45,668 bases of DNA from a virus: positions 1-45,668 of IMG/VR virus record IMGVR_UViG_3300015203_000005. One strand, written 5' to 3'. The notes beneath the pieces were generated by a model. The model was given only the letters and a program-made list of their open reading frames with translations, was not told the DNA's origin and made no database searches. Shown here piece by piece: positions 28,525 through 35,266 of this stretch. The position numbers and the translations under genes were made by a program. Positions within the stretch are counted from its first letter, which is position 1. Every line of letters begins with the position of its first letter.

Positions 28525-28917
28525 AGTTGTAAATGGTTATAAGTTTGTAGTACACCCAGGACTCGAACCTGGCACCAAAGACTATCTCTAACTTTAGCCG
28601 CTCCACTAGCTTTGTACTTGCCCTCAAGGGTTAAGATGGAAACGCTCCATCAGGGACTCCGTTCTTGCAGCCTACTTACTTTTATCCTGCACGATTTAAG
28701 TAAGTGCTATCCCCCTCTCTACGCCACAACTATTCCCGTGGCCGGTAACTTTAATGTTTAAGCAGGCCGGTGTGGTATCTTGCTCCCCAATACTCATACA
28801 ACTACTGCTGTACTTATCGGTTCATAGCGTTCCCATACTCCGTTTACTTTTCCTACCTGCTACCGCCATCCCAATGCCTCGTCAGGGCACATCGGTGTTC
28901 GGATAGCGCAACGTTCT
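28525..28917 (-). ncRNA. 393-nt ORF-free, hairpin-rich segment ending in tRNA-like element 1 (candidate structured RNA)
   Basis: No minus-strand ORF of 60 aa or more. Hairpins at 28674-28705 (8 bp) and 28635-28651 (6 bp). Lies inside an otherwise tightly packed operon. Confidence 0.4.
28548..28618 (-). tRNA. tRNA-like element 1 (71 nt), anticodon arm not canonical
   Basis: Minus strand: AGTACAA...CCAGG-TTCGAGT-CCTGG-GTGTACT-A. 6/7-bp acceptor stem and a perfect T arm. The middle folds as a 6-bp stem CTAAAG/CTTTGG with an 11-nt loop. Confidence 0.45.
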
Positions 28918-30210
28918 TTACACTTCTAATTTGGCAAAAAACTCCTCTACTTTTTCATTACAGAAAAATTTCGCCGCCGTGAGTTTAGAGGCAAGGGTTA
29001 GACCTTCCAGGCTACGTGCCCGACTAAGCGCCACGTATAGTTGACCTTCGGCGAAGATTTTATTCGCGTCCACATGAACTTTATCAAACGATTGCCCCTG
29101 CGATTTGTGTATGGAAATACTCCAAGCAAGTTTCAATGGTACTTGTTCGATCGCGGCCTTTAATACTTCTACACGTTCACCACCTTGCATTTCCTTTACC
29201 TTATGCTCGCGACGCTTTTTGTAGACTGGAACAATGGGGCCGCCGTCAAGCTGTACGCTTACCACATCATCCTGTAGTTCCACCACTGTGCCAAGCGAAC
29301 CGTTCACAGTTATACCTTTGCCTGCTTTTGCGTTGGGTGGAACGTCAGCATTATTCACGGTTACCATAACTTGTGCGCCGACCTTGAGTGTGAGTGGAAC
29401 CAGGTCTATTTTTTCCGGCCACTTACCATATTCCTTGCACGTGTACGTCTTTGGCTCAGCCTGTATTGCTTTAAGAAACTGCTGATTAATGATTTCCGTT
29501 TCCTTATTGGTTCCAGCCAGCCGGATACGTACGTCCTCTATCTTCGGCTTCACATTTTTGTTTAGTTCCACTAACTGCTTCGGCGTAACTTCGCCGGTGC
29601 GGCAAGAGTGGAGAATGGAAATAAATTTGTTATCTCCCTTTTGCCGCAACACTTCAGTAAGTTCCAATATTTGAAAATCGGCCGCCTCAAAAACTTTGGA
29701 ACTAAACACGAATGGCGAATCATAATGCAGTTTCATCTCCGCTCCATCCCTACCAACCACTGGTGGTAGTTGGTAGAAGTCCCCAACAAGTACCACCTGT
29801 ATGCCACCGAACGGCAGGTCCACCTGTTTGAAGTGACGCAGTTCCCGATCAATATAATCGAACGTATCGGCACGTACCATACTTACCTCATCAATGATAA
29901 GGTACTTAACGCCGTACGTTAGATGTTTGACTATACTATCGAACGTCGTGAACTTGTTAAAGTCAGGGTGGAAAATACCATCACTTACAGGTATACCAAA
30001 CACGGAATGGAGCGTCTTTCCACCTCCGTTTATTGCCGCCAGGCCGGTAGGCGCGCACATCGTCCACGGCTTTTGCGAGTATTCAAGCAGCGCCCGCTCA
30101 AGTACTGTTTTGCCGACGCCCGGTTTTCCGCATATAAGTATGTTGCGCGACGAATTTTCAACTATGTCAAAAATCCGTTGCTGATCGTTTGTTAATGTAT
30201 GTAGTTCCAT
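28918..30210 (-). CDS. Pif1/RecD-like SF1 DNA helicase
   Basis: ILICGKPGVGKT (Walker A), LIIDEVSMV (Walker B), GDFYQLPPV, SIHKSQGQSFDKV, YVALSRARS. Confidence 0.85.
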   Translation of the reverse strand: MELHTLTNDQQRIFDIVENSSRNILICGKPGVGKTVLERALLEYSQKPWTMCAPTGLAAINGGGKTLHSVFGIPVSDGIFHPDFNKFTTFDSIVKHLTYGVKYLIIDEVSMVRADTFDYIDRELRHFKQVDLPFGGIQVVLVGDFYQLPPVVGRDGAEMKLHYDSPFVFSSKVFEAADFQILELTEVLRQKGDNKFISILHSCRTGEVTPKQLVELNKNVKPKIEDVRIRLAGTNKETEIINQQFLKAIQAEPKTYTCKEYGKWPEKIDLVPLTLKVGAQVMVTVNNADVPPNAKAGKGITVNGSLGTVVELQDDVVSVQLDGGPIVPVYKKRREHKVKEMQGGERVEVLKAAIEQVPLKLAWSISIHKSQGQSFDKVHVDANKIFAEGQLYVALSRARSLEGLTLASKLTAAKFFCNEKVEEFFAKLEV

Positions 30211-30223
30211 ATAGATAGTTTTA
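30211..30223 (-). promoter_or_regulatory. Conserved leader 13-mer TAAAACTATCTAT abutting the start codon (copy 1)
   Basis: Plus strand ATAGATAGTTTTA lies directly next to the helicase ATG (30208-30210). Confidence 0.5.
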
Positions 30224-30224
30224 T

Positions 30225-30578
30225 TTATTCAAAATGAATAGTATAACTTTTAAACTCCTGTTGTTGCGTAACCTGGTACGGCCATTTACAATCAAATGGT
30301 ATCTCTATAATTTCAAAAGTGGCTGCAATAAAAAATACCCCCTGAAATCTTTTATACCAACCGCTCGCAAAACTATCGCTTTTAGTATTAAAAGAATCTA
30401 AATGTAGCATACTTATTCCTTCTGGGAGTAACGCATCTAATTCAGGAAAAACCCCTTTACCATTTGTTTCTTTCGCGTTTAAACCGTTAAAGAAATTATT
30501 ATACATGCTGCCATTAACTTCATTTAGTCTACCTAAACTTCTTACATCTCTCATTTTGTTATTGTTAATAGTCTCCAT
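30225..30578 (-). CDS. 117-aa hypothetical protein, visibly AT-rich
   Basis: ORF track. By eye the base composition is clearly more AT-rich than its neighbours. Confidence 0.55.
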   Translation of the reverse strand: METINNNKMRDVRSLGRLNEVNGSMYNNFFNGLNAKETNGKGVFPELDALLPEGISMLHLDSFNTKSDSFASGWYKRFQGVFFIAATFEIIEIPFDCKWPYQVTQQQEFKSYTIHFE

Positions 30579-30661
30579 CCTTTAGGAATCGGCGGCAATT
30601 CACGCGCGTACAAAGTCACACGCTCGCCGCCATAAATGTGCATAATGTTATACTGTTTCAT
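30551..30661 (-). CDS. 36-aa hypothetical protein (MKQYNIMHIYGGERV...)
   Basis: Part of ORF 30551..30736. ATG 30661 overlaps the upstream stop by 14 nt. Confidence 0.25.
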   Translation of the reverse strand: MKQYNIMHIYGGERVTLYARELPPIPKGWRLLTITK

Positions 30662-31022
30662 ACGCAGGTATTTTAAAAATTTCCATGTTCGTCCGCGCCT
30701 GTTTGGCGACTGCGATGTCGTTAAGCTGCCCAGCATACTTCACAATCCTTGGCTCACCCTTTCTATTTGGTTTCATCCAGTTCGCGATCTGCCAATCAAG
30801 CAGCGTGCCGTACTTCATGTAATACTTTGCCGTGATGGCTCCGATCCTTCCATCTGTGCCCGTAAACCCCACGCCGTTCTGTAAGCGCGTGACGTTATTG
30901 TGTTTCTCCACCTCTGTTTGGCGGTGGAACAACGCGACAAGCGCCCGGCCGATAACCCGCGCAGGGTCCTTGGTAATCAACTCCTTAAGCGATTGCTTTG
31001 TAACCAATGGTGCTGGTTTCAT
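30648..31022 (-). CDS. 124-aa hypothetical protein
   Basis: ORF track. ATGA coupling upstream. Confidence 0.6.
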   Translation of the reverse strand: MKPAPLVTKQSLKELITKDPARVIGRALVALFHRQTEVEKHNNVTRLQNGVGFTGTDGRIGAITAKYYMKYGTLLDWQIANWMKPNRKGEPRIVKYAGQLNDIAVAKQARTNMEIFKIPAYETV

Positions 31023-31222
31023 ATAAGGGCTTTTTTAGCAAAGTAATTTGCATTTTCTATCGAAGGTAAATTACCAAGCGTTCTAAACTGTTTACTCTGT
31101 TCACCATGCAAGTAAACAATAACTGTCCACCCTGTTCTAGTTTCACTTCTTAACCAGACAACGTGTTGGCCATTATTTATCCAAAATTCTGCTTTTTCTA
31201 TTTTAGTAGGTACGGTTTTCAT
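31019..31222 (-). CDS. 67-aa hypothetical protein, AT-rich
   Basis: ORF track. Confidence 0.55.
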   Translation of the reverse strand: MKTVPTKIEKAEFWINNGQHVVWLRSETRTGWTVIVYLHGEQSKQFRTLGNLPSIENANYFAKKALI

Positions 31223-31512
31223 TTCGGTAAGCGGTTAATGATAGCAGTAAGTTTATTTATGCACTTAGGTAGTAAACCTTCCCAACCGGGGGCGTTCCAA
31301 ATTGCAATTAGTTTTTGTACCTCTTGCGTTAACTCTGGTGCGATCAGTACCACGTCCTGCCCGATAAGATTAAGCGCAGCCAGGGTGGAGGCGGCATCAT
31401 TCAGTTTTTCAAGAAAAGGTACAAGGTCGGATTTTTTTGTCCGCACGTTGGCTTTCCAATTTCTTCGTGCATAGTTAACCGCACCTGTTTGTTCTTTGAT
31501 TGTGTGTTTCAT
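31219..31512 (-). CDS. 97-aa hypothetical protein
   Basis: ORF track. Start is preceded by the conserved 13-mer. Confidence 0.55.
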   Translation of the reverse strand: MKHTIKEQTGAVNYARRNWKANVRTKKSDLVPFLEKLNDAASTLAALNLIGQDVVLIAPELTQEVQKLIAIWNAPGWEGLLPKCINKLTAIINRLPK

Positions 31513-31525
31513 ATAGATAGTTTTA
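31513..31525 (-). promoter_or_regulatory. Conserved leader 13-mer TAAAACTATCTAT abutting the start codon (copy 2)
   Basis: Plus strand ATAGATAGTTTTA lies directly next to ATG 31510-31512. Confidence 0.5.
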
Positions 31526-31532
31526 ATTAAGT

Positions 31533-31631
31533 TGGCAGATGGTACTGGATTCGAACCAGTGTACTAAAGGAGCAGCGAACAGTTTAGCCATGTTCTTTTA
31601 CCCCGACCGTAGACCGCTTGGTTAACCATCT
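31533..31631 (-). tRNA. tRNA-like element 2 (99 nt including encoded CCA), type II-like D arm, extended non-canonical anticodon arm
   Basis: AGATGGT/ACCATCT perfect acceptor, ACTGG-TTCGAAT-CCAGT T arm, discriminator G + CCA. D stem ACC/GGT with loop AAGCGGTCTAC. Confidence 0.6.
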
Positions 31632-31637
31632 GTTTTT

Positions 31638-32324
31638 TTATGCACCAATTCTTTTTTGCACAAGTCCGCGTGACCAAGCCGAAAATGATACATCCTCTTT
31701 TACAAGAATTGCATCAACTTTTTTCCAATCAGCTTCGGTAAGAAACATATTGTTCCCGCGTGGGATTGTCTTTTCACCCTTTACTTTAGTGACAGGTTTT
31801 TTGGCAGCCGCTTTTCCGTTTTTCTTACTTGTTTTCATGTTTGCATTTTCGGCTGCCGCCATCGTTACAGTTTTTACTATTTTACTTTTTGGACCTTTAG
31901 CGGAAATTTTTTCGCCTTTCACATTTTCTACCTTCGGTGCGTGAGAGGGTGGAACTACTTCGCCGTTTATGTAAGCAGATTCAAATGTCCACTTATTCGT
32001 GCGGGCGCTGCCGATCTCTATACCCACGGGATCGGTTTCCTCTTCCACTAACATGGTGAATTTGTCCTTTAGGTAAGTGATATAAAATTCGCCCTCTTTT
32101 TCGTTGAGCCAGATCGTATGTTCAACGCCTTTGTTTTTCTTTGACAGCTTTACGACTAGCTGCTTTGTTGTGTTCATGTCCATATTGCGTGCATATTTAA
32201 AGTTGACAAACTTGGCTGGAAATATTGCCAGCACTTTTTCTAAGGCATTAAAAAAATTTCGGCCCTGAGCGTGAACTCTACGGACACTGGTCGGCCCACG
32301 GATAAGGAATGGATAACTGTTCAT
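31638..32324 (-). CDS. 228-aa protein with a Lys-rich central linker (DNA-binding-like)
   Basis: ORF track. Contains KKNGKAAAKKPVTKVKGEK. Confidence 0.6.
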   Translation of the reverse strand: MNSYPFLIRGPTSVRRVHAQGRNFFNALEKVLAIFPAKFVNFKYARNMDMNTTKQLVVKLSKKNKGVEHTIWLNEKEGEFYITYLKDKFTMLVEEETDPVGIEIGSARTNKWTFESAYINGEVVPPSHAPKVENVKGEKISAKGPKSKIVKTVTMAAAENANMKTSKKNGKAAAKKPVTKVKGEKTIPRGNNMFLTEADWKKVDAILVKEDVSFSAWSRGLVQKRIGA

Positions 32325-32515
32325 CGGCTTTTAACCATTTCATATTCCATAGGCCATTGGGTAGTGTCCATTTCAATTTCCTGATCTAAGAAACAAAAAC
32401 AATCAGGCCGACAAAAATCGTCCGCAGGGCTGTCAAAGTCCTGTGTAAAATAAACGCTTTCATAATTTCCGTTGTCAGACTTGCTACGGAAATACAGTAG
32501 TCTTACTTTTTCCAT
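32321..32515 (-). CDS. 64-aa hypothetical protein (MEKVRLLYF...)
   Basis: Within ORF 32321..32605. ATG 32515 lies 1 nt after the upstream stop. Confidence 0.5.
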   Translation of the reverse strand: MEKVRLLYFRSKSDNGNYESVYFTQDFDSPADDFCRPDCFCFLDQEIEMDTTQWPMEYEMVKSR

Positions 32516-32516
32516 A

Positions 32517-32681
32517 CTATTGTGGCCTCCTTCCAATGAATGTAAGTTCTGGCTTCCGTACGGTACAAACCAGTCCATTATCCTGCCTGACCTTATACTT
32601 GTCACTGTTATGGTACGGCTGCACGATTCTGGCTAGCTCGGTACCTTGTACCAAGACGCGATTTCCTTTTTGGTATGTCAT
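32517..32681 (-). CDS. 54-aa hypothetical protein (MTYQKGNRVLVQG...)
   Basis: Within ORF 32517..32753. ATG 32681 is preceded by the conserved 13-mer. Confidence 0.5.
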   Translation of the reverse strand: MTYQKGNRVLVQGTELARIVQPYHNSDKYKVRQDNGLVCTVRKPELTFIGRRPQ

Positions 32682-32685
32682 ATAA

Positions 32686-32698
32686 ATAGATAGTTTTA
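32686..32698 (-). promoter_or_regulatory. Conserved leader 13-mer TAAAACTATCTAT (copy 3, 4 nt from the ATG)
   Basis: Plus strand ATAGATAGTTTTA at 32686-32698. Confidence 0.5.
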
Positions 32699-32768
32699 AG
32701 TTCAACAGTTTTAAAAAATATAGCCGCCTGGTTTTCGGTAGCCTACTAGGCAAGACGCTATATTAAAA

Positions 32769-32820
32769 CTACTATACTCAAGCGGCCGTAAGTACACGGC
32801 GGCAATTACGAGTATAGTAG
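32769..32820. repeat. Perfect 11-bp inverted repeat enclosing a nested 5-bp hairpin
   Basis: CTACTATACTC ... GAGTATAGTAG, with an inner GCCGT-aagtac-ACGGC. Confidence 0.8.
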
Positions 32821-33178
32821 AATTTAAAAGAAAGCTAGTTGTTTACTTGCGTAACTCTTTACAACTTATGGACTAGCTACGCGCGTTAACGATTTACCGC
32901 CTGTGCTCAACTTTCTTTTGGTCGCAAGATGCCAAGCGAATGGCGGGCTAATAAAATGTGGTTAACTTTATTACCACTTGCGATTTCTCCTTCAGGTTCC
33001 GGCGGCTCTAGTGTCCGACGCTTACGGGCGTTTCCGGTTCTGGGTTCCAGTTCGTGTCTTGCACGGCTGTGAGTGTTTGGGAAGTCCTGCTCTTCCGGTA
33101 GTTAAACCTGCTCTAAACGCCAGATTCTATACTAACAACAAGACAAATATCATAATAAGTTATTTCTCAACCTAATTT

Positions 33179-33706
33179 TCAATGACTTATTTTTCTGCTA
33201 TTTTGGGCTAATTTGGCCGATTTTGGGCTTTTAACTAAAGTTTTACTTTCAATAGCCGCCTTTTCACCTATTAATGTACCCCAAGAGCGCCCTAATTTCT
33301 TTTCTTCCGCTTGCAGTCGCAGTTCCACCTCCTTACGACAATGCGCCCGGTTCCGGTGCCAATGAAAACACAGGTGGTACTTGCGCTCAAAGGTAATGAT
33401 TAACCGTTCCAGACCCTGGCTGCTGAACTTACGATCACGGCCATATGGGAAATTTTTTTCAATGAAATTTTTTTTCGTCCCTTCAACGTAGACACAAATG
33501 GTAATGCGTTCCCACGCTGCGCGAAAAAGTTCCGCCTTAAATCGGCTGTTACCTTGCACCAAAGTCCCATACAAATCTTGTAGGCTCTTGCGCTCTATAT
33601 GGAAAACGTTCTTTAGTTTCTCGGTGGTGTAATCCCCAACGCAAAGTGTACAGCGAACGGACTGGAACAAAGGTAGCTGTTCGCGGGTATCAACAAGAAT
33701 TTTCAT
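33179..33706 (-). CDS. ERCC4-type (XPF/Mus81-like) nuclease, probable junction resolvase
   Basis: KILVDTRE ... VGDY ... IERKSLQDL is the ERCC4 catalytic signature. ATG 33706 preferred. Confidence 0.75.
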   Translation of the reverse strand: MKILVDTREQLPLFQSVRCTLCVGDYTTEKLKNVFHIERKSLQDLYGTLVQGNSRFKAELFRAAWERITICVYVEGTKKNFIEKNFPYGRDRKFSSQGLERLIITFERKYHLCFHWHRNRAHCRKEVELRLQAEEKKLGRSWGTLIGEKAAIESKTLVKSPKSAKLAQNSRKISH

Positions 33707-33716
33707 ACCCACGTAT

Positions 33717-33911
33717 CTAGGATGCACATGCGTACCTGGCCAACTTCTCGGCATACAATTCACAATCCTCCTTTGGTATAGACCGCAGCAACATCGTGCT
33801 TTCCTTTCGTAGTTTAACTATACGCACCTGGGCGTCCCGAACGCGGGCCTGCTGCACTTTGGACAGGGTGGAAATCTCGCGCATACGGCGAATCTTTTGA
33901 ACGGTGTTCAT
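33717..33911 (-). CDS. 64-aa basic helical hypothetical protein
   Basis: ORF track. ATGA coupling. Confidence 0.5.
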   Translation of the reverse strand: MNTVQKIRRMREISTLSKVQQARVRDAQVRIVKLRKESTMLLRSIPKEDCELYAEKLARYACAS

Positions 33912-34549
33912 AACTTACTTTTTATGTATTTGAGTAGACTTTTCATTTCCATCTGCGCGCTATCCAACAACGCTGGGTATTGACTAACCGCGAACGGCAT
34001 TACCACGTGTGGTTCCACCTTACTCTGGCCGATATAGTAAAAATCTTTGCGCGGCACAGCGGCCAGATAAATCGCGGCCTGCAAAAAATCCATCGCCGCC
34101 ACGAAAGCCGCCATAGCCGTTAGCTTGGTAGTCTTAAGATCACATATACTATCAGTATTGAGTATATCTATACGACCGTAGACCGGTACGCCGTAGATGG
34201 ATGGAACCACAATACCGCGTTTGGATTTATATTTATCAAGTACAGCACGCGGTCCAAAATCAATCTCATTAACGGATTTTATCAGCAACCTTTTGGCAAT
34301 CATATTGCGTTCCATCGCCTGCATCATGAGCGCCAATTTTTTTTCTTCGTCTAGCGATAAAATGGTAAGTCGTTTCTTTTCCAGTAGTCGTGAGTGGTGC
34401 TCCTTACCGAACGTGTGCCATACTTCCTCCTTGTAGGCGGTTGGTTCCACACAGTCGCGGACATTTTTTATACTACTGTAGCTGGCATACCCACGCTTAC
34501 GGATATAGTCCAATGCGGCTCGGTCGTCGTTAAATTCACTTGTAGGCAT
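33908..34549 (-). CDS. PD-(D/E)XK (RecB/Cas4-like) exonuclease
   Basis: GRIDIL ... CDLKTT ... QAAIY correspond to the D, ExK-type and QxxxY motifs. Confidence 0.7.
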   Translation of the reverse strand: MPTSEFNDDRAALDYIRKRGYASYSSIKNVRDCVEPTAYKEEVWHTFGKEHHSRLLEKKRLTILSLDEEKKLALMMQAMERNMIAKRLLIKSVNEIDFGPRAVLDKYKSKRGIVVPSIYGVPVYGRIDILNTDSICDLKTTKLTAMAAFVAAMDFLQAAIYLAAVPRKDFYYIGQSKVEPHVVMPFAVSQYPALLDSAQMEMKSLLKYIKSKL

Positions 34550-34562
34550 CTTAATTAGTTAG

Positions 34563-34639
34563 TGGAGAAACTTGGATTCGAACCACATCTCAGGTCGGAG
34601 TCCGGACGCCTGCGCTTTGCCATTAAGCTATGTTTCCCC
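34563..34639 (-). tRNA. tRNA-like element 3 (77 nt) with G3-U70 and A73; possible CCG anticodon loop, but weak anticodon stem
   Basis: GGGGAAA/TTTCTCC acceptor including G3.U70; D stem GCTT/AAGC with loop AATGGCA; TTCGAAT T loop; loop GUCCGGA fits the U33-NNN-R37 pattern. Confidence 0.55.
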
Positions 34640-34641
34640 TT

Positions 34642-34671
34642 ATAAAAAAGGCAGCCTACGGGGGCCGCCTT
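34642..34671 (-). terminator. Rho-independent terminator after the SSB-like gene
   Basis: Minus strand AAGGCGGCC-cccgta-GGCTGCCTT followed by a T-run. Confidence 0.65.
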
Positions 34672-34696
34672 TCTAACTTAAACTATCAACCAAACA

Positions 34697-35266
34697 CTAT
34701 TTGAAATGATACTCCGTCACATCGTTACCTTCAACCTCCCAAGGATTTTCTCCGGTAAACAGTGCATCAAGATTACACGGCTTTGCATTTGCGGCTTTAA
34801 TCGCTTCTTTGTCCAGTGCTTTCTTAGGCGACGGCTGAACACCATACCTGGTCTTTTTGCCTTCGCCCTTTTTGGTTACGGTAATGTCGTAGCTAAAAGG
34901 ATTTCCCCAATCGGGATTCTTGGCATAGGCGTTGATGCCTTTGATAACCGACTGTTGCGTGATCTCCAAAACTTTCACCTCTCCATCTTCACGATCGATC
35001 ACAACGACGGTCATGAATTTTTTAGGTTTATCTTTGGGGTCTTTTGATGGTGCATCGGGTTCACCATCTTCAATGGAAGACCGGACCGGCTTACGTGTCT
35101 CGTCTTCATCTTCTTCCCACACGATCCATCCCATAAGGGGTTTGGAAATGATACGGAACTTTGTATCGCCAGCTTCAAACCGGAGATAACTGGACTGGCC
35201 TTCTGATTCGGCTTCGTCAGCGAAACCGTTAAATTGCTTTGCGGATTTTGTTTGCGGTTTACCCAT
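34697..35266 (-). CDS. 189-aa acidic protein, putative ssDNA-binding/recombination protein
   Basis: First gene of the leftward operon, upstream of the exonuclease. The function is a guess based on context and OB-like beta-rich segments. Confidence 0.5.
   Translation of the reverse strand: MGKPQTKSAKQFNGFADEAESEGQSSYLRFEAGDTKFRIISKPLMGWIVWEEDEDETRKPVRSSIEDGEPDAPSKDPKDKPKKFMTVVVIDREDGEVKVLEITQQSVIKGINAYAKNPDWGNPFSYDITVTKKGEGKKTRYGVQPSPKKALDKEAIKAANAKPCNLDALFTGENPWEVEGNDVTEYHFK

Follow-up and report, generated by a model that had tools for sequence, protein, structure and literature searches.

Three non-decoding tRNA-like elements between phage genes as possible natural tRNA scaffolds

The window, by which we mean the whole 45,668-nt stretch of viral DNA analysed, comes from a phage whose host probably belongs to the Bacteroidota. 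Three tRNA-like elements, E1, E2 and E3 (Table 1), lie on its coding strand in the gaps between what appear to be early replication and recombination cistrons. In agreement with the first-pass annotation, which had placed all three 13-23 nt before the next start codon, the gaps to the following ATG are 13 nt for E3 (ATG at 34549), 20 nt for E2 (31512) and 23 nt for E1 (28524), and E2 does begin 6 nt after the upstream stop (TAA at 31640-31638). Gene gaps across this block are, however, 0-30 nt throughout, so that any intergenic element must end near the next start and the short spacing is in itself unremarkable. Elements occupy 3 of about 24 gene junctions, most junctions in the block having none. 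The same annotation's 'one long leftward operon' is not strictly right, because an intrinsic terminator separates the SSB-like gene from E3. This hairpin (AAAGGCGGCC-CCCGUA-GGCUGCCUUU, then a U run) is not among the sites listed by a consensus terminator scan, but read directly from the sequence it is canonical, with the stem GGCGGCC/GGCUGCC followed by U6, and a homologous hairpin and U run are kept in the related loci L001 and L033.

Table 1. Positions of the elements and associated features in the window
Feature	Position	Strand	Remarks
Intrinsic terminator	34644..34672	-	between SSB-like gene (stop at 34697) and E3
E3	34563..34639	-	tRNA-like cloverleaf, 77 nt contiguous; discriminator A at 34563
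Leader motif AACUAUC	32695-32689		further copy
E2	31533..31631	-	tRNA-like RNA, 99 nt; ...ACCATCT-G-CCA, end at 31533
E2 long arm	31569..31604	-	outer helix GGGGUA/UGCUCC, 3x2 internal loop, inner helix GAACA/UGUUC
Leader motif AACUAUC	31522-31516		further copy; gene after E2
Leader motif AACUAUC	30214..30220	-	3 nt before helicase AUG
Module X	28619..28917	-	conserved noncoding; fills helicase stop-to-E1 gap
E1	28548..28618	-	tRNA-like cloverleaf; discriminator A at 28548

Each element contains a T arm (GGTTCGAATCC or GGTTCGAGTCC) and, 3' of it, an acceptor strand; the 5' strand with which this forms 6-8 bp lies 70-100 nt upstream. A simple detector combining T-loop motif, T stem and acceptor complement, applied to both strands of the 45.7-kb window, finds exactly three sites, which are E1, E2 and E3. 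Shuffled windows have a mean of 0.32 sites and reach three in 3 of 200 shuffles, so the set exceeds chance expectation. The acceptor of E1 is AGUACA(A)/(G)UGUACU, followed by A73 and CAA; its D arm is short, its variable region 2 nt, its T arm CCAGG-UUCGAGU-CCUGG, and its 'anticodon' arm CUAAAG-UUAGAGAUAGU-CUUUGG (28597-28575). E2 has a perfect 7-bp acceptor (AGAUGGU/ACCAUCU, then G73 and CCA), a perfect T arm (ACUGG-UUCGAAU-CCAGU), a variable region of 8 nt and a 3-bp D stem with the loop AAGCGGUCUAC, as in tRNA-Gln; in place of the anticodon arm stands a 36-nt arm with a 9-nt loop, UGGCUAAAC. The E2 D arm differs from that of the phage tRNA-Gln(UUG) in L032 only at the two closing D-stem positions (ACC/GGU versus GCC/GGC), the loop being identical. 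E3 has a canonical D arm (UAGCUUAAUGGCAAAGC) and a weak T stem (three Watson-Crick pairs plus G.A and U.G). Its anticodon region is CAGG-14 nt-CCUG; an alternative drawing closes a 9-nt loop, UCCGGACUC, with a stem of 6 bp that contains a bulged A. In the register starting at 34639 its acceptor reads GGGGAAA/UUUCUCC (G1-C72, G2-C71, G3.U70, G4-C69, A73), which is of the tRNA-Ala/tmRNA type, a register that requires a D-stem linker of 4 nt, not 2 nt.

None of the three has a usable anticodon loop and none is a normal decoder, as the first-pass annotation had held. ARAGORN reports no tRNAs in the whole window; the Rfam tRNA model (gathering score 29) gives E3 29.5 bits, a marginal match with a 14-nt stretch in place of the expected 9 nt, and has no hit to E1 or E2 even when E<10 is allowed. 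No Rfam family matches E1 or E2, and no element loop offers a 7-nt frame in which three nucleotides separate U33 from a purine. Nor is there a canonical tRNA in 159 kb from 13 related loci, although these hold at least 15 tRNA-like elements, so that the abnormal anticodon arm is a trait in its own right, not a product of decay. That the elements are true decoders, with unconventional anticodon loops or small introns removed before use, is extremely improbable. With introns allowed, ARAGORN does read E2 as a tRNA-Ala(CGC) with a 21-nt intron; CUA sits at the centre of the 9-nt loop of E2, and GUCCGGA in E3 would make a plausible loop for Arg(CCG), apart from 5 additional nucleotides. However, the intron solution puts U at position 37 and is unsupported by the conserved structure of E2, in which a covarying outer helix and an invariant inner hairpin form one continuous arm. 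Neither a bulge-helix-bulge motif nor a group I intron was found, and no in-frame stop codons suggestive of recoding were found either.

The elements differ in how widely they are shared. L001 is the closest relative, with a helicase 86% identical and the same gene order. E2 is 89% identical in nucleotide sequence to its L001 homologue, against 72-78% for flanking coding DNA, and it occurs in four phages (the window, L001, L002 and L034). The apical 28 nt of its long arm are invariant in all four, while the adjoining protein is only 49-66% identical, and the outer helix varies as GGGG/CUCC, GAGG/CCUC, GGGG/CCUC and GGAA/UUCC. Across the 26 pairs of this four-sequence alignment, 99% of cells are paired, four pairs change on both sides, and nearly all substitutions are compensatory; the fold of E2 has z = -2.87, with none of 200 shuffles equally stable. 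Judged by these substitutions, E2 is a member of a conserved, structurally selected RNA family in related phages.

On comparative grounds E1, too, is a member of a covarying, structurally selected RNA family found in related phages, although alone it folds no better than shuffles (z = -0.40). Its homologue in L039 (1452-1527) shows compensatory changes in acceptor, D stem and arm. In alignments that were assembled by hand, with segments picked partly by complementarity, 8 of the 12 acceptor and T helix pairs covary (10 members; 95% of cells paired and 27 changed on both sides, a level that none of 500 shuffles reaches), as do 5 of 6 pairs of the arm hairpin, around an invariant GAUAGU loop. 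In the window, E1 is the 3' domain of a conserved noncoding RNA of about 370 nt. The remainder, module X, comprises the conserved blocks UAAAGAACGU, UAGCAGGUAAGGAAAGUAAACGGAG.AUGGGAACGC and GGGGAGCAAGAUACC.CACCGGCCUGCUUAAA, and a small hairpin, CCCUUGAGGG (28630-28621), that abuts E1. It aligns with L033, L041 and L035 and more weakly with L034, and is absent from L001 and L039. Module X has no match in Rfam at E<10 and no ORF of at least 40 aa on the coding (minus) strand; the plus strand carries two ORFs of about 50 aa (28612-28761 and 28754-28906).

The invariant E1 loop is complementary to ACUAUC in the leaders of early genes, just 5' of the AUG. The motif AACUAUC, present three times in the window, precedes 2-5 early genes each in L001, L002, L033, L034 and L036 and one in L038. 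One further position covaries, the window having leader ACUAUCU and loop AGAUAGU where other phages have ACUAUCA and UGAUAGU. The payload of E1 may be an antisense loop against this leader. The complementarity is suggestive but statistically weak: it was noticed post hoc, the pairing is short (6-8 nt) and A/U-rich, and 181 of 500 shuffled loops bind window start regions equally well. In L037, L155, L156 and L157, which have other leader motifs, no matching hairpin was found within the DNA available, and a search for complementary targets of E2 and E3 found none.

We infer that E1-E3 are independent, non-decoding, tRNA-derived RNA genes, and the explanation we tentatively favour, while placing it somewhat short of even probability, is that they are natural 'tRNA scaffolds': stable small RNAs excised from the transcript, in which the replaced anticodon arm would be the functional part and the cutting of mRNA a side effect. 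The elements retain the tRNA body (acceptor and T-arm helix, D arm) that host RNase P, RNase Z or exonucleases, and the CCA enzyme would recognise, with the anticodon arm replaced or expanded into a hairpin unable to decode. Transcription of the early block would read through the elements, and host tRNA-maturation enzymes would cleave both their 5' and 3' ends. This would free a stable L-shaped RNA of 75-100 nt, with the substituted arm (the invariant 28-nt hairpin of E2, or the GAUAGU loop of E1) as its working part, possibly acting in trans, and would leave a short A/U-rich leader on the downstream cistron. As both E1 and E2 fall in conserved, structurally selected families of related phages, they appear to be more than cutting marks. 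E3, a singleton with an alanine-type acceptor, may be a recent or decaying member.

The first-pass annotation had instead compared the elements with mitochondrial tRNA punctuation. In its pure form this would make them cis-acting cutting signals, at which RNase P and RNase Z divide a polycistronic early transcript so that downstream cistrons have a short leader or none, while the RNA cut out has no role itself. We regard this as unlikely to be the main function, though it is partly supported. The acceptor/T-arm minihelix that was said to be kept is indeed intact, and covaries in relatives. As in mitochondria, the coding strand has tRNA-shaped elements in the gaps between cistrons, right beside the following start codon, degenerate and non-canonical shapes suffice, and short or absent leaders are the predicted outcome of cutting. 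Across phages the elements end 0-26 nt before the AUG, with gaps of 0-3 nt in some relatives, as expected of leaderless-mRNA punctuation, and abut the AUG in L002, L033 and L035; the host type lacks Shine-Dalgarno sequences, so the position of the 5' end could matter for initiation. E1-type elements recur after the helicase gene in the window, L033, L034, L035, L039 and L156, and at the corresponding position in L002, where that gene is largely deleted. Five tRNA-like sequence types are found, in different phages, at the junction after the 228-aa gene: E2, E1-type, Ala type, 'AGGGGAG' type and, in L038, a minihelix of acceptor and T arm alone. Such variety at one junction is explained no less well by a position-specific cis role than by a scaffold. 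However, cutting needs no conserved anticodon arm, yet the E2 long arm and the E1 loop, in the non-acceptor half, are conserved in sequence. E1 is accompanied by about 300 nt more of conserved noncoding RNA, the terminator already sets the SSB-like gene apart from E3, and most junctions lack an element. L001, with the same genes in the same order, has neither E1 nor E3 at these junctions, so expression of the neighbouring genes does not need them. Moreover, the punctuating tRNAs of mitochondria decode, whereas the phage elements do not.

It is also unlikely that the elements are mimics that act as decoys or sponges for host factors reading the acceptor/T-arm half (aminoacyl-tRNA synthetases, toxins or defence nucleases that target the acceptor end, modification enzymes), being bound and perhaps aminoacylated or attacked so that the host tRNA pool is protected or perturbed. 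AlaRS reads the alanine acceptor identity set independently of the anticodon, and E3 and an Ala-type element resembling it in L156 (6713-6784) bear the full set, but in E3 only with the 4-nt D-stem linker. E2 combines its tRNA-Gln-like D arm with a weak 1-72 pair and G73, but GlnRS normally requires the anticodon. In the E1 family the acceptor end (A1-U72, G2-C71, U3-A70) never varies, and the AC after it is kept in 9 of 10 members, which suggests sequence-specific recognition of that end, and several acceptor identities occur inside one phage group. An element that lacks an anticodon loop, on the other hand, could not act as a decoy for anticodon nucleases, and the window holds no sign of a conflict that targets tRNAs: the 37 proteins scanned (of about 65 ORFs, those left out being mainly small) include no RNA ligase, Pnkp, CCA enzyme or synthetase. 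Very doubtful, finally, is the idea that the elements are decaying tRNA pseudogenes in a region of frequent phage tRNA gain and loss. The conservation that the first-pass annotation had suggested looking for is found for E2 and the E1 family, with compensatory substitutions and at a level well above neighbouring coding DNA, and no relative has an intact tRNA that could be the source. It is E3 that lends this idea some weight: E3 occurs in none of the relatives found, being absent from the same slot in L001 and L033, and it combines its weak T stem with an ambiguous acceptor register and an apparent 5-nt insertion in the GUCCGGA loop. Like E1, it alone folds no better than shuffles (z = -1.15), and close relatives differ in presence and absence of elements.

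Precedents exist for parts of the favoured scaffold reading. T4 species 1 and 2 (RNA C and D) are stable tRNA-like RNAs of T-even phages that keep the tRNA body, and in engineered 'tRNA scaffolds' a cargo RNA replaces the anticodon arm, with host enzymes processing and stabilising the product. Both, like E1-E3, keep the tRNA body without decoding through the anticodon arm. The T4 RNAs have genuine tRNAs as neighbours within a tRNA gene cluster, whereas the elements here are dispersed between protein genes with no real tRNAs. In the literature we found no description of the scaffold principle as a natural phage strategy; tRNA-like molecules of T-even phages are catalogued in a work cited by PMC11143913. 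Among the substrates of RNase P are sites within polycistronic mRNAs, phage M3 RNA and the C4 antisense RNA of phages P1 and P7, a regulatory RNA that the enzyme cuts out of a longer early transcript in which the targets of C4 also lie (PMC11143913). C4 loops are complementary to regions near the starts of co-transcribed genes, and GAUAGU against ACUAUC would act alike, although E1 has no sequence or Rfam similarity to C4, is a full cloverleaf with a T arm, and has a sequence-based complementarity of only 6-8 nt. Unlike tmRNA, E3 forms one contiguous cloverleaf that includes a D and an 'anticodon' arm; it lacks pseudoknots and a tag reading frame, and receives no tmRNA call from ARAGORN or Rfam. 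Like the tRNA-like domain of tmRNA and tRNA-Ala, it has an acceptor GGGG.../...CUCC-A with the alanine identity set G3.U70 and A73, and a T arm with GGUUCGAAUCC.

ARAGORN in its default setting calls no tRNA gene in the window, and the Rfam tRNA model RF00005 matches neither E1 nor E2 at E<10 and admits E3 only barely, at 29.5 bits where the gathering score is 29. A custom detector combining T loop, T stem and acceptor complement returns exactly three sites in the window, namely the tRNA-like elements E1, E2 and E3; shuffled windows average 0.32. On these results, the three elements are real, tRNA-like and non-decoding. The first-pass annotation had placed them 23, 20 and 13 nt from the next ATG, with E2 beginning 6 nt after the upstream stop codon, and these distances, read from the sequence, are exact. 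It had also denied all three a convincing decoder anticodon arm, which our searches bear out: a canonical arm (5-bp stem, 7-nt loop, U33, three anticodon bases, purine 37) is found in none, its stem and loop being replaced in E1 by a 6-bp stem with an 11-nt loop and in E2 by a 36-nt two-helix arm with a 9-nt loop, while the anticodon region of E3, at 14 nt, is 5 nt longer than the 9 expected by the Rfam model. The acceptor stem and T arm (GTTCRANYC loop) that it described as retained are present in all three and stack to 12 bp, with covariation support, the T stem of E3 being weak.

At 45.7 kb, the window probably represents an entire phage genome; it encodes a capsid protein, terminase, family A DNA polymerase, primase, Dam methylase and tail proteins. 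A leftward block of about 24 tightly packed, co-oriented genes includes those for an SSB-like protein, a PDDEXK exonuclease, an ERCC4 nuclease and a Dda/PIF1 helicase, together with many small ORFs. No similar DNA was found in the GenBank phage collection, and near and distant BLAST searches of GenBank phages, with the region or the individual elements as query, returned only T-arm-level matches to ordinary tRNAs. As no Shine-Dalgarno sequence precedes the window genes, leaders are A-rich and the closest GenBank capsids (26-29% identity) are from Flavobacteriia phages, we infer that the host is likely Bacteroidota-type. The block is probably not the one long operon previously proposed, since a textbook intrinsic terminator, conserved in relatives, lies 5 nt upstream of E3. 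Likewise, the closeness of the elements to the next ATG, correct in itself, is not special, because every gap in the block is short. Coordinates of these and other features are collected below, with L numbers denoting viral contigs.

Positions of the elements and associated features in the window and in related viral contigs
Feature	Contig	Position	Strand	Remarks
E1	window	28618-28548	-	
E2	window	31631-31533	-	
E3	window	34639-34563	-	
Leftward gene block	window	~35308 down to 25252	-	
Module X	window	28619-28917	-	~300 nt, noncoding; ~75-90% identity in blocks to L033/L041 and L035
Intrinsic terminator	window	34672-34644	-	upstream of E3
Leader motif UAAAACUAUC	window	32695-32689	-	before ORF at 32681
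Leader motif UAAAACUAUC	window	31522-31516	-	before gene after E2
Leader motif UAAAACUAUC	window	30220-30214	-	before helicase
Leader motif UAAAACUAUC	L001	6194, 6668, 7064, 7688, 7994		
Leader motif AAACGCU(U)	L037, L155			same place
Leader motif AAACCCUU	L156			same place
Leader motif ACUAUU	L157			same place
10-nt direct repeat AAACTATCAT	L001	6944-6953 and 7064-7073		
10-nt direct repeat AAACTATCAT	L002	9882, 10002		
Frame MAKLFA...	window	31593-31525	-	
E1-type members	L002, L033, L034, L035 (two), L036, L038, L039 (two), L156 (two)			
Hairpin UGGAYGCCCG-AUUAAUG-CGGGU	L002, L033, L034, L035, L036, L039	10995, 9505, 4573, 1737, 4721, 1551 respectively		abuts acceptor 5' end of E1-type element
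Junction after 228-aa gene homologue	window, L034			E2
Junction after 228-aa gene homologue	L036			E1-type
Junction after 228-aa gene homologue	L038			bare minihelix
Junction after 228-aa gene homologue	L155			"AGGGGAG" type
Junction after 228-aa gene homologue	L156			Ala type
Helicase remnants	L002	10780-10900		
~200-nt noncoding stretch	L033	7154-7385		
~200-nt noncoding stretch	L034	1480-1690		
Triplet repeats	L034, L035, L039	264-490, 1-40, 1-80 respectively		in gene upstream of helicase

In the sequence of E2 the 7-bp acceptor and the T arm are both perfect, position 73 is G and the CCA is encoded; its D arm differs from that of a phage tRNA-Gln(UUG) found elsewhere only at the two closing D-stem positions (ACC/GGU vs GCC/GGC), the loop AAGCGGUCUAC being identical. 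Its fold is more stable than 200/200 shuffles. Homologues are present in L001 (the window's closest relative), L002 and L034; identity to the L001 copy is 89%, as against 72-78% in flanking coding DNA. In an alignment of the four sequences, 26 pairs are 99% paired and substitutions are almost all compensatory: A-U gives way to G-C at acceptor pair 3-70, and the outer helix varies at three of its four G-C pairs (GGGG/CUCC, GAGG/CCUC, GGGG/CCUC, GGAA/UUCC). The apical 28 nt of the two-helix arm, which is capped by the loop UGGCUAAAC, show no variation, and the CCA is variable, being CUA in other phages. A mere cutting signal would not need this arm.

The apical loop resembles a translation start site, and an AUG within it, in the start-region-like context AAAAGAACAUGGCUAAA, opens a short frame (MAKLFA...). 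This frame is probably not a gene: it runs to 22, 8 or 19 codons depending on the phage and is not conserved, since its length shifts with a 1-nt indel. Searches with a 17-mer from the invariant loop gave 36 matches in the viral and 79 in the genome collections, none tRNA-like, and we regard these as chance or as coding 'ATGGCTAAAC' gene starts rather than relatives; within the window, potential targets of the E2 and E3 loops are limited to chance-level 8-10-mers. In L001 and L002, a 10-nt direct repeat corresponding to the leader motif, the short sequence that precedes early-gene AUGs, lies on both sides of E2, and E2 could have been inserted or exchanged via recombination at such motifs.

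E1 taken alone is a weak cloverleaf (z = -0.40). Its homologue in L039 carries compensatory changes in the acceptor (AGUACAA/GUGUACU vs AGUAUGC/GUAUACU), the D stem and the arm, and members of the E1-type family share an acceptor AGUR.../...YACU followed by AC(A/U), plus the T arm. Across ten members, from hand-assembled segments, the 12-bp acceptor/T helix is 95% paired, with both sides changed in 8 pairs. A hairpin, GCCCG-AUUAAUG-CGGGU, stands immediately 5' of many members, in shortened form (CCCUUGAGGG) in the window; its longer invariant form (see table) has a 5-bp stem and a 7-nt loop, the dimensions of an anticodon arm. The hairpin 20-mer CCCGATTAATGCGGGTTAGT matches only L002/L040 and L041, and is absent as an exact sequence from 185,579 reference genomes, with no match to any bacterial genome. 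The sole match of a 21-mer from the E1 T arm is an ordinary tRNA-Phe.

Conservation extends beyond E1 itself: the whole 370-nt gap after the helicase is conserved as noncoding in L033/L041 and L035. Module X, the part of this gap between the helicase stop and E1, contains an invariant long-range pair (AGCAGGU/GCCUGCU) and no ORF of at least 40 aa on the coding strand, and is absent from L001 and L039. An Rfam search of the gap (451-nt slice), including the tmRNA, group I intron, RNase P RNA and Y RNA models, gave no match even at E<10. Resemblances seen by eye to P4 of RNase P RNA ('AGGAAAGU...CCGGC.CUGCUUA') and to R/S of a group I intron ('GAUAGUC') do not fit in order or spacing. A tmRNA-like closure, in which the 3' acceptor strand of E1 pairs with the 5' end of the 370-nt RNA, was suggested by RNAalifold and fits L035, roughly the window, and not L033; local acceptor pairing is supported in all E1-type members. 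In L033 and L034, about 200 nt of further noncoding sequence is conserved upstream of the 97-aa-gene homologue; it closes with a terminator-like hairpin and U run (GUGCGGAUGCGGCACUUUUUU) and is likely a separate small RNA. An isrG Rfam match in L034 is spurious, deriving from GCTGCT/GCCGCC-type triplet repeats, which also occur in L035 and L039.

E3 is unique to the window phage; the same slot is empty in L001 and occupied by a 44-aa ORF in L033. The 5' half of E3 is a D arm of the generic phage tRNA type, and an 18-mer from this arm is uninformative as to origin because unrelated phages have it in their His, Thr, Ile, Trp, Met and suppressor tRNAs. Read from 34639, a register that entails a 4-nt linker to the D stem, the acceptor GGGGAAA/UUUCUCC-A gives G1-C72, G2-C71, G3.U70, G4-C69 and A73, the tRNA-Ala/tmRNA identity set; in this register, E3 alone among the three elements has an alanine-type acceptor (G3.U70, A73). 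A cleaner copy of this type of acceptor, with an 8-nt loop, is present in the distant relative L156.

Could the elements instead belong to a known class of tRNA-like RNA? A tmRNA would account for the alanine-type acceptor of E3, but the elements are without a tag reading frame or pseudoknots, and ARAGORN and Rfam give only meaningless 'permuted' calls at low threshold. Bacterial Y RNAs (YrlA) also carry a tRNA-like module, though that module ends at the Ro-binding stem, whereas E1, E2 and E3 each form an acceptor stem from their own 5' and 3' ends and have no Y RNA match in Rfam. The extended arm of E2 might suggest an intron-containing tRNA; its internal loop is 3x2 and symmetric, not the two staggered 3-nt bulges of a bulge-helix-bulge motif, the ARAGORN intron solution is non-canonical, and no Rfam group I intron match was obtained for the elements or the 370-nt gap. 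Finally, we reject an origin as remnants of attP or integration sites, since the cloverleaves are full, there are three of them, and no integrase was found among the subset of ORFs scanned. E1 and E2 each represent a conserved family of structured RNAs that Rfam lacks; none of the three elements decodes.

How far these features recur was assessed in 12 related contigs reached via helicase homologues. No canonical tRNA is present in 159 kb of sequence from relatives, the sole ARAGORN call being a "tRNA-???" with a 2-nt anticodon in L156, and there are at least 15 tRNA-like elements. A tRNA-like element of some type is always present after the homologue of the 228-aa gene (in the window, the gene preceding E2), and its type differs among phages (see table). 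E1-type elements follow the helicase in six phages and stand at the corresponding position in L002, where only short N- and C-terminal stretches of the helicase gene are left and the downstream element and neighbouring genes are kept. Related phages do not consistently retain the elements at these junctions: E2 and E1-type elements recur, E3 was found in the window only, and L001 lacks both E1 and E3, a pattern partly offset by the constant presence of some element after the 228-aa gene. The strongest case for a position-dependent (cis) role, or else for a preferred insertion site, is this replacement of one type by another at fixed positions.

The first-pass annotation had proposed that RNase P and RNase Z cut the early transcript at the elements, as in mitochondria. 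The elements do directly flank cistrons on the transcribed strand, and, counting those of relatives, lie 0-26 nt from the AUG that follows, with no gap at all in L002, L033 and L035; against this, L001 has the gene order without E1 and E3. Given the features recognised by RNase P and RNase Z, and the precedents of phage C4 and M3 RNAs and operon mRNAs as RNase P substrates (PMC11143913), host tRNA-processing enzymes very probably act on the elements, and some segmentation of the transcript is therefore likely. Even so, the pattern of conservation suggests that selection acts on the RNA released, or on its special arm.

Early genes of the window's lineage share the leader motif 0-7 nt before the AUG: three genes in the window, five in L001 and four each in L034 and L036, the range across five relatives being 1-5. 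In the window, the distance from ACUAUC(U) to the AUG is 3-7 nt in all three cases. GAUAGU, the loop that never varies in the E1 arm, is the exact complement of ACUAUC, a relationship noticed after the fact, and where the cloverleaf E1 is missing (L001, L002, L034, L036, L038) the loop occurs as a stand-alone hairpin on covarying stems. One flanking base covaries, the window having leader ACUAUCU and loop AGAUAGU, and the others leader ACUAUCA and loop UGAUAGU. Such a pattern might fit a role like that of the C4-type antisense RNA of P1/P7, whose loop is directed against start regions of co-transcribed genes; for E1, however, the loop-leader duplex is weak (-7.9 kcal/mol) and no better than with shuffled loops. 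For the leaders of other lineages (AAACGCU, AAACCCUU, ACUAUU), no matching hairpin is present in the partial sequences. The same leader and loop pattern would arise if a protein read a DNA motif in both orientations. We consider it improbable that E1-type RNAs are tRNA-shaped regulators in which a 6-8-nt 'anticodon' loop (UUGAUAGU or AGAUAGU, after a U-turn-like YUNR) reads ACUAUC as a 'codon'; were they so, host-excised tRNA mimics would switch early-gene translation off or on in a host that does without Shine-Dalgarno sequences, and the various tRNA-like types seen at fixed junctions would serve as exchangeable cassettes in such a system.

The usual explanations for tRNA genes in phages are codon usage or evasion of anticodon nucleases. 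The present phage group, of about 35-60 kb, carries only non-decoding tRNA-like genes, with at least two families under clear structural selection. If host tRNA enzymes excise the elements, they would amount to a naturally occurring "tRNA scaffold" and a bacterial-virus counterpart of organellar transcript punctuation. The analysis yields three concrete candidate RNAs, a conserved RNA of 300 nt that lacks annotation, and a leader motif of early genes; the latter two should be useful for gene-expression work on Bacteroidota-type phages, in which little is understood about how translation initiation is signalled.

Many phages may carry non-decoding tRNA-like genes, perhaps widely overlooked, because half of the viral-contig matches to a generic Ala-type tRNA 3'-end pattern in IMG/VR (59/120; loci L158-L277) are not callable by ARAGORN. 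Many of these 59 resemble tRNA bodies whose anticodon regions are enlarged or unusual, and a Leu-like element recurs in five gut-virome contigs (L164, L165, L168, L182 and L186).
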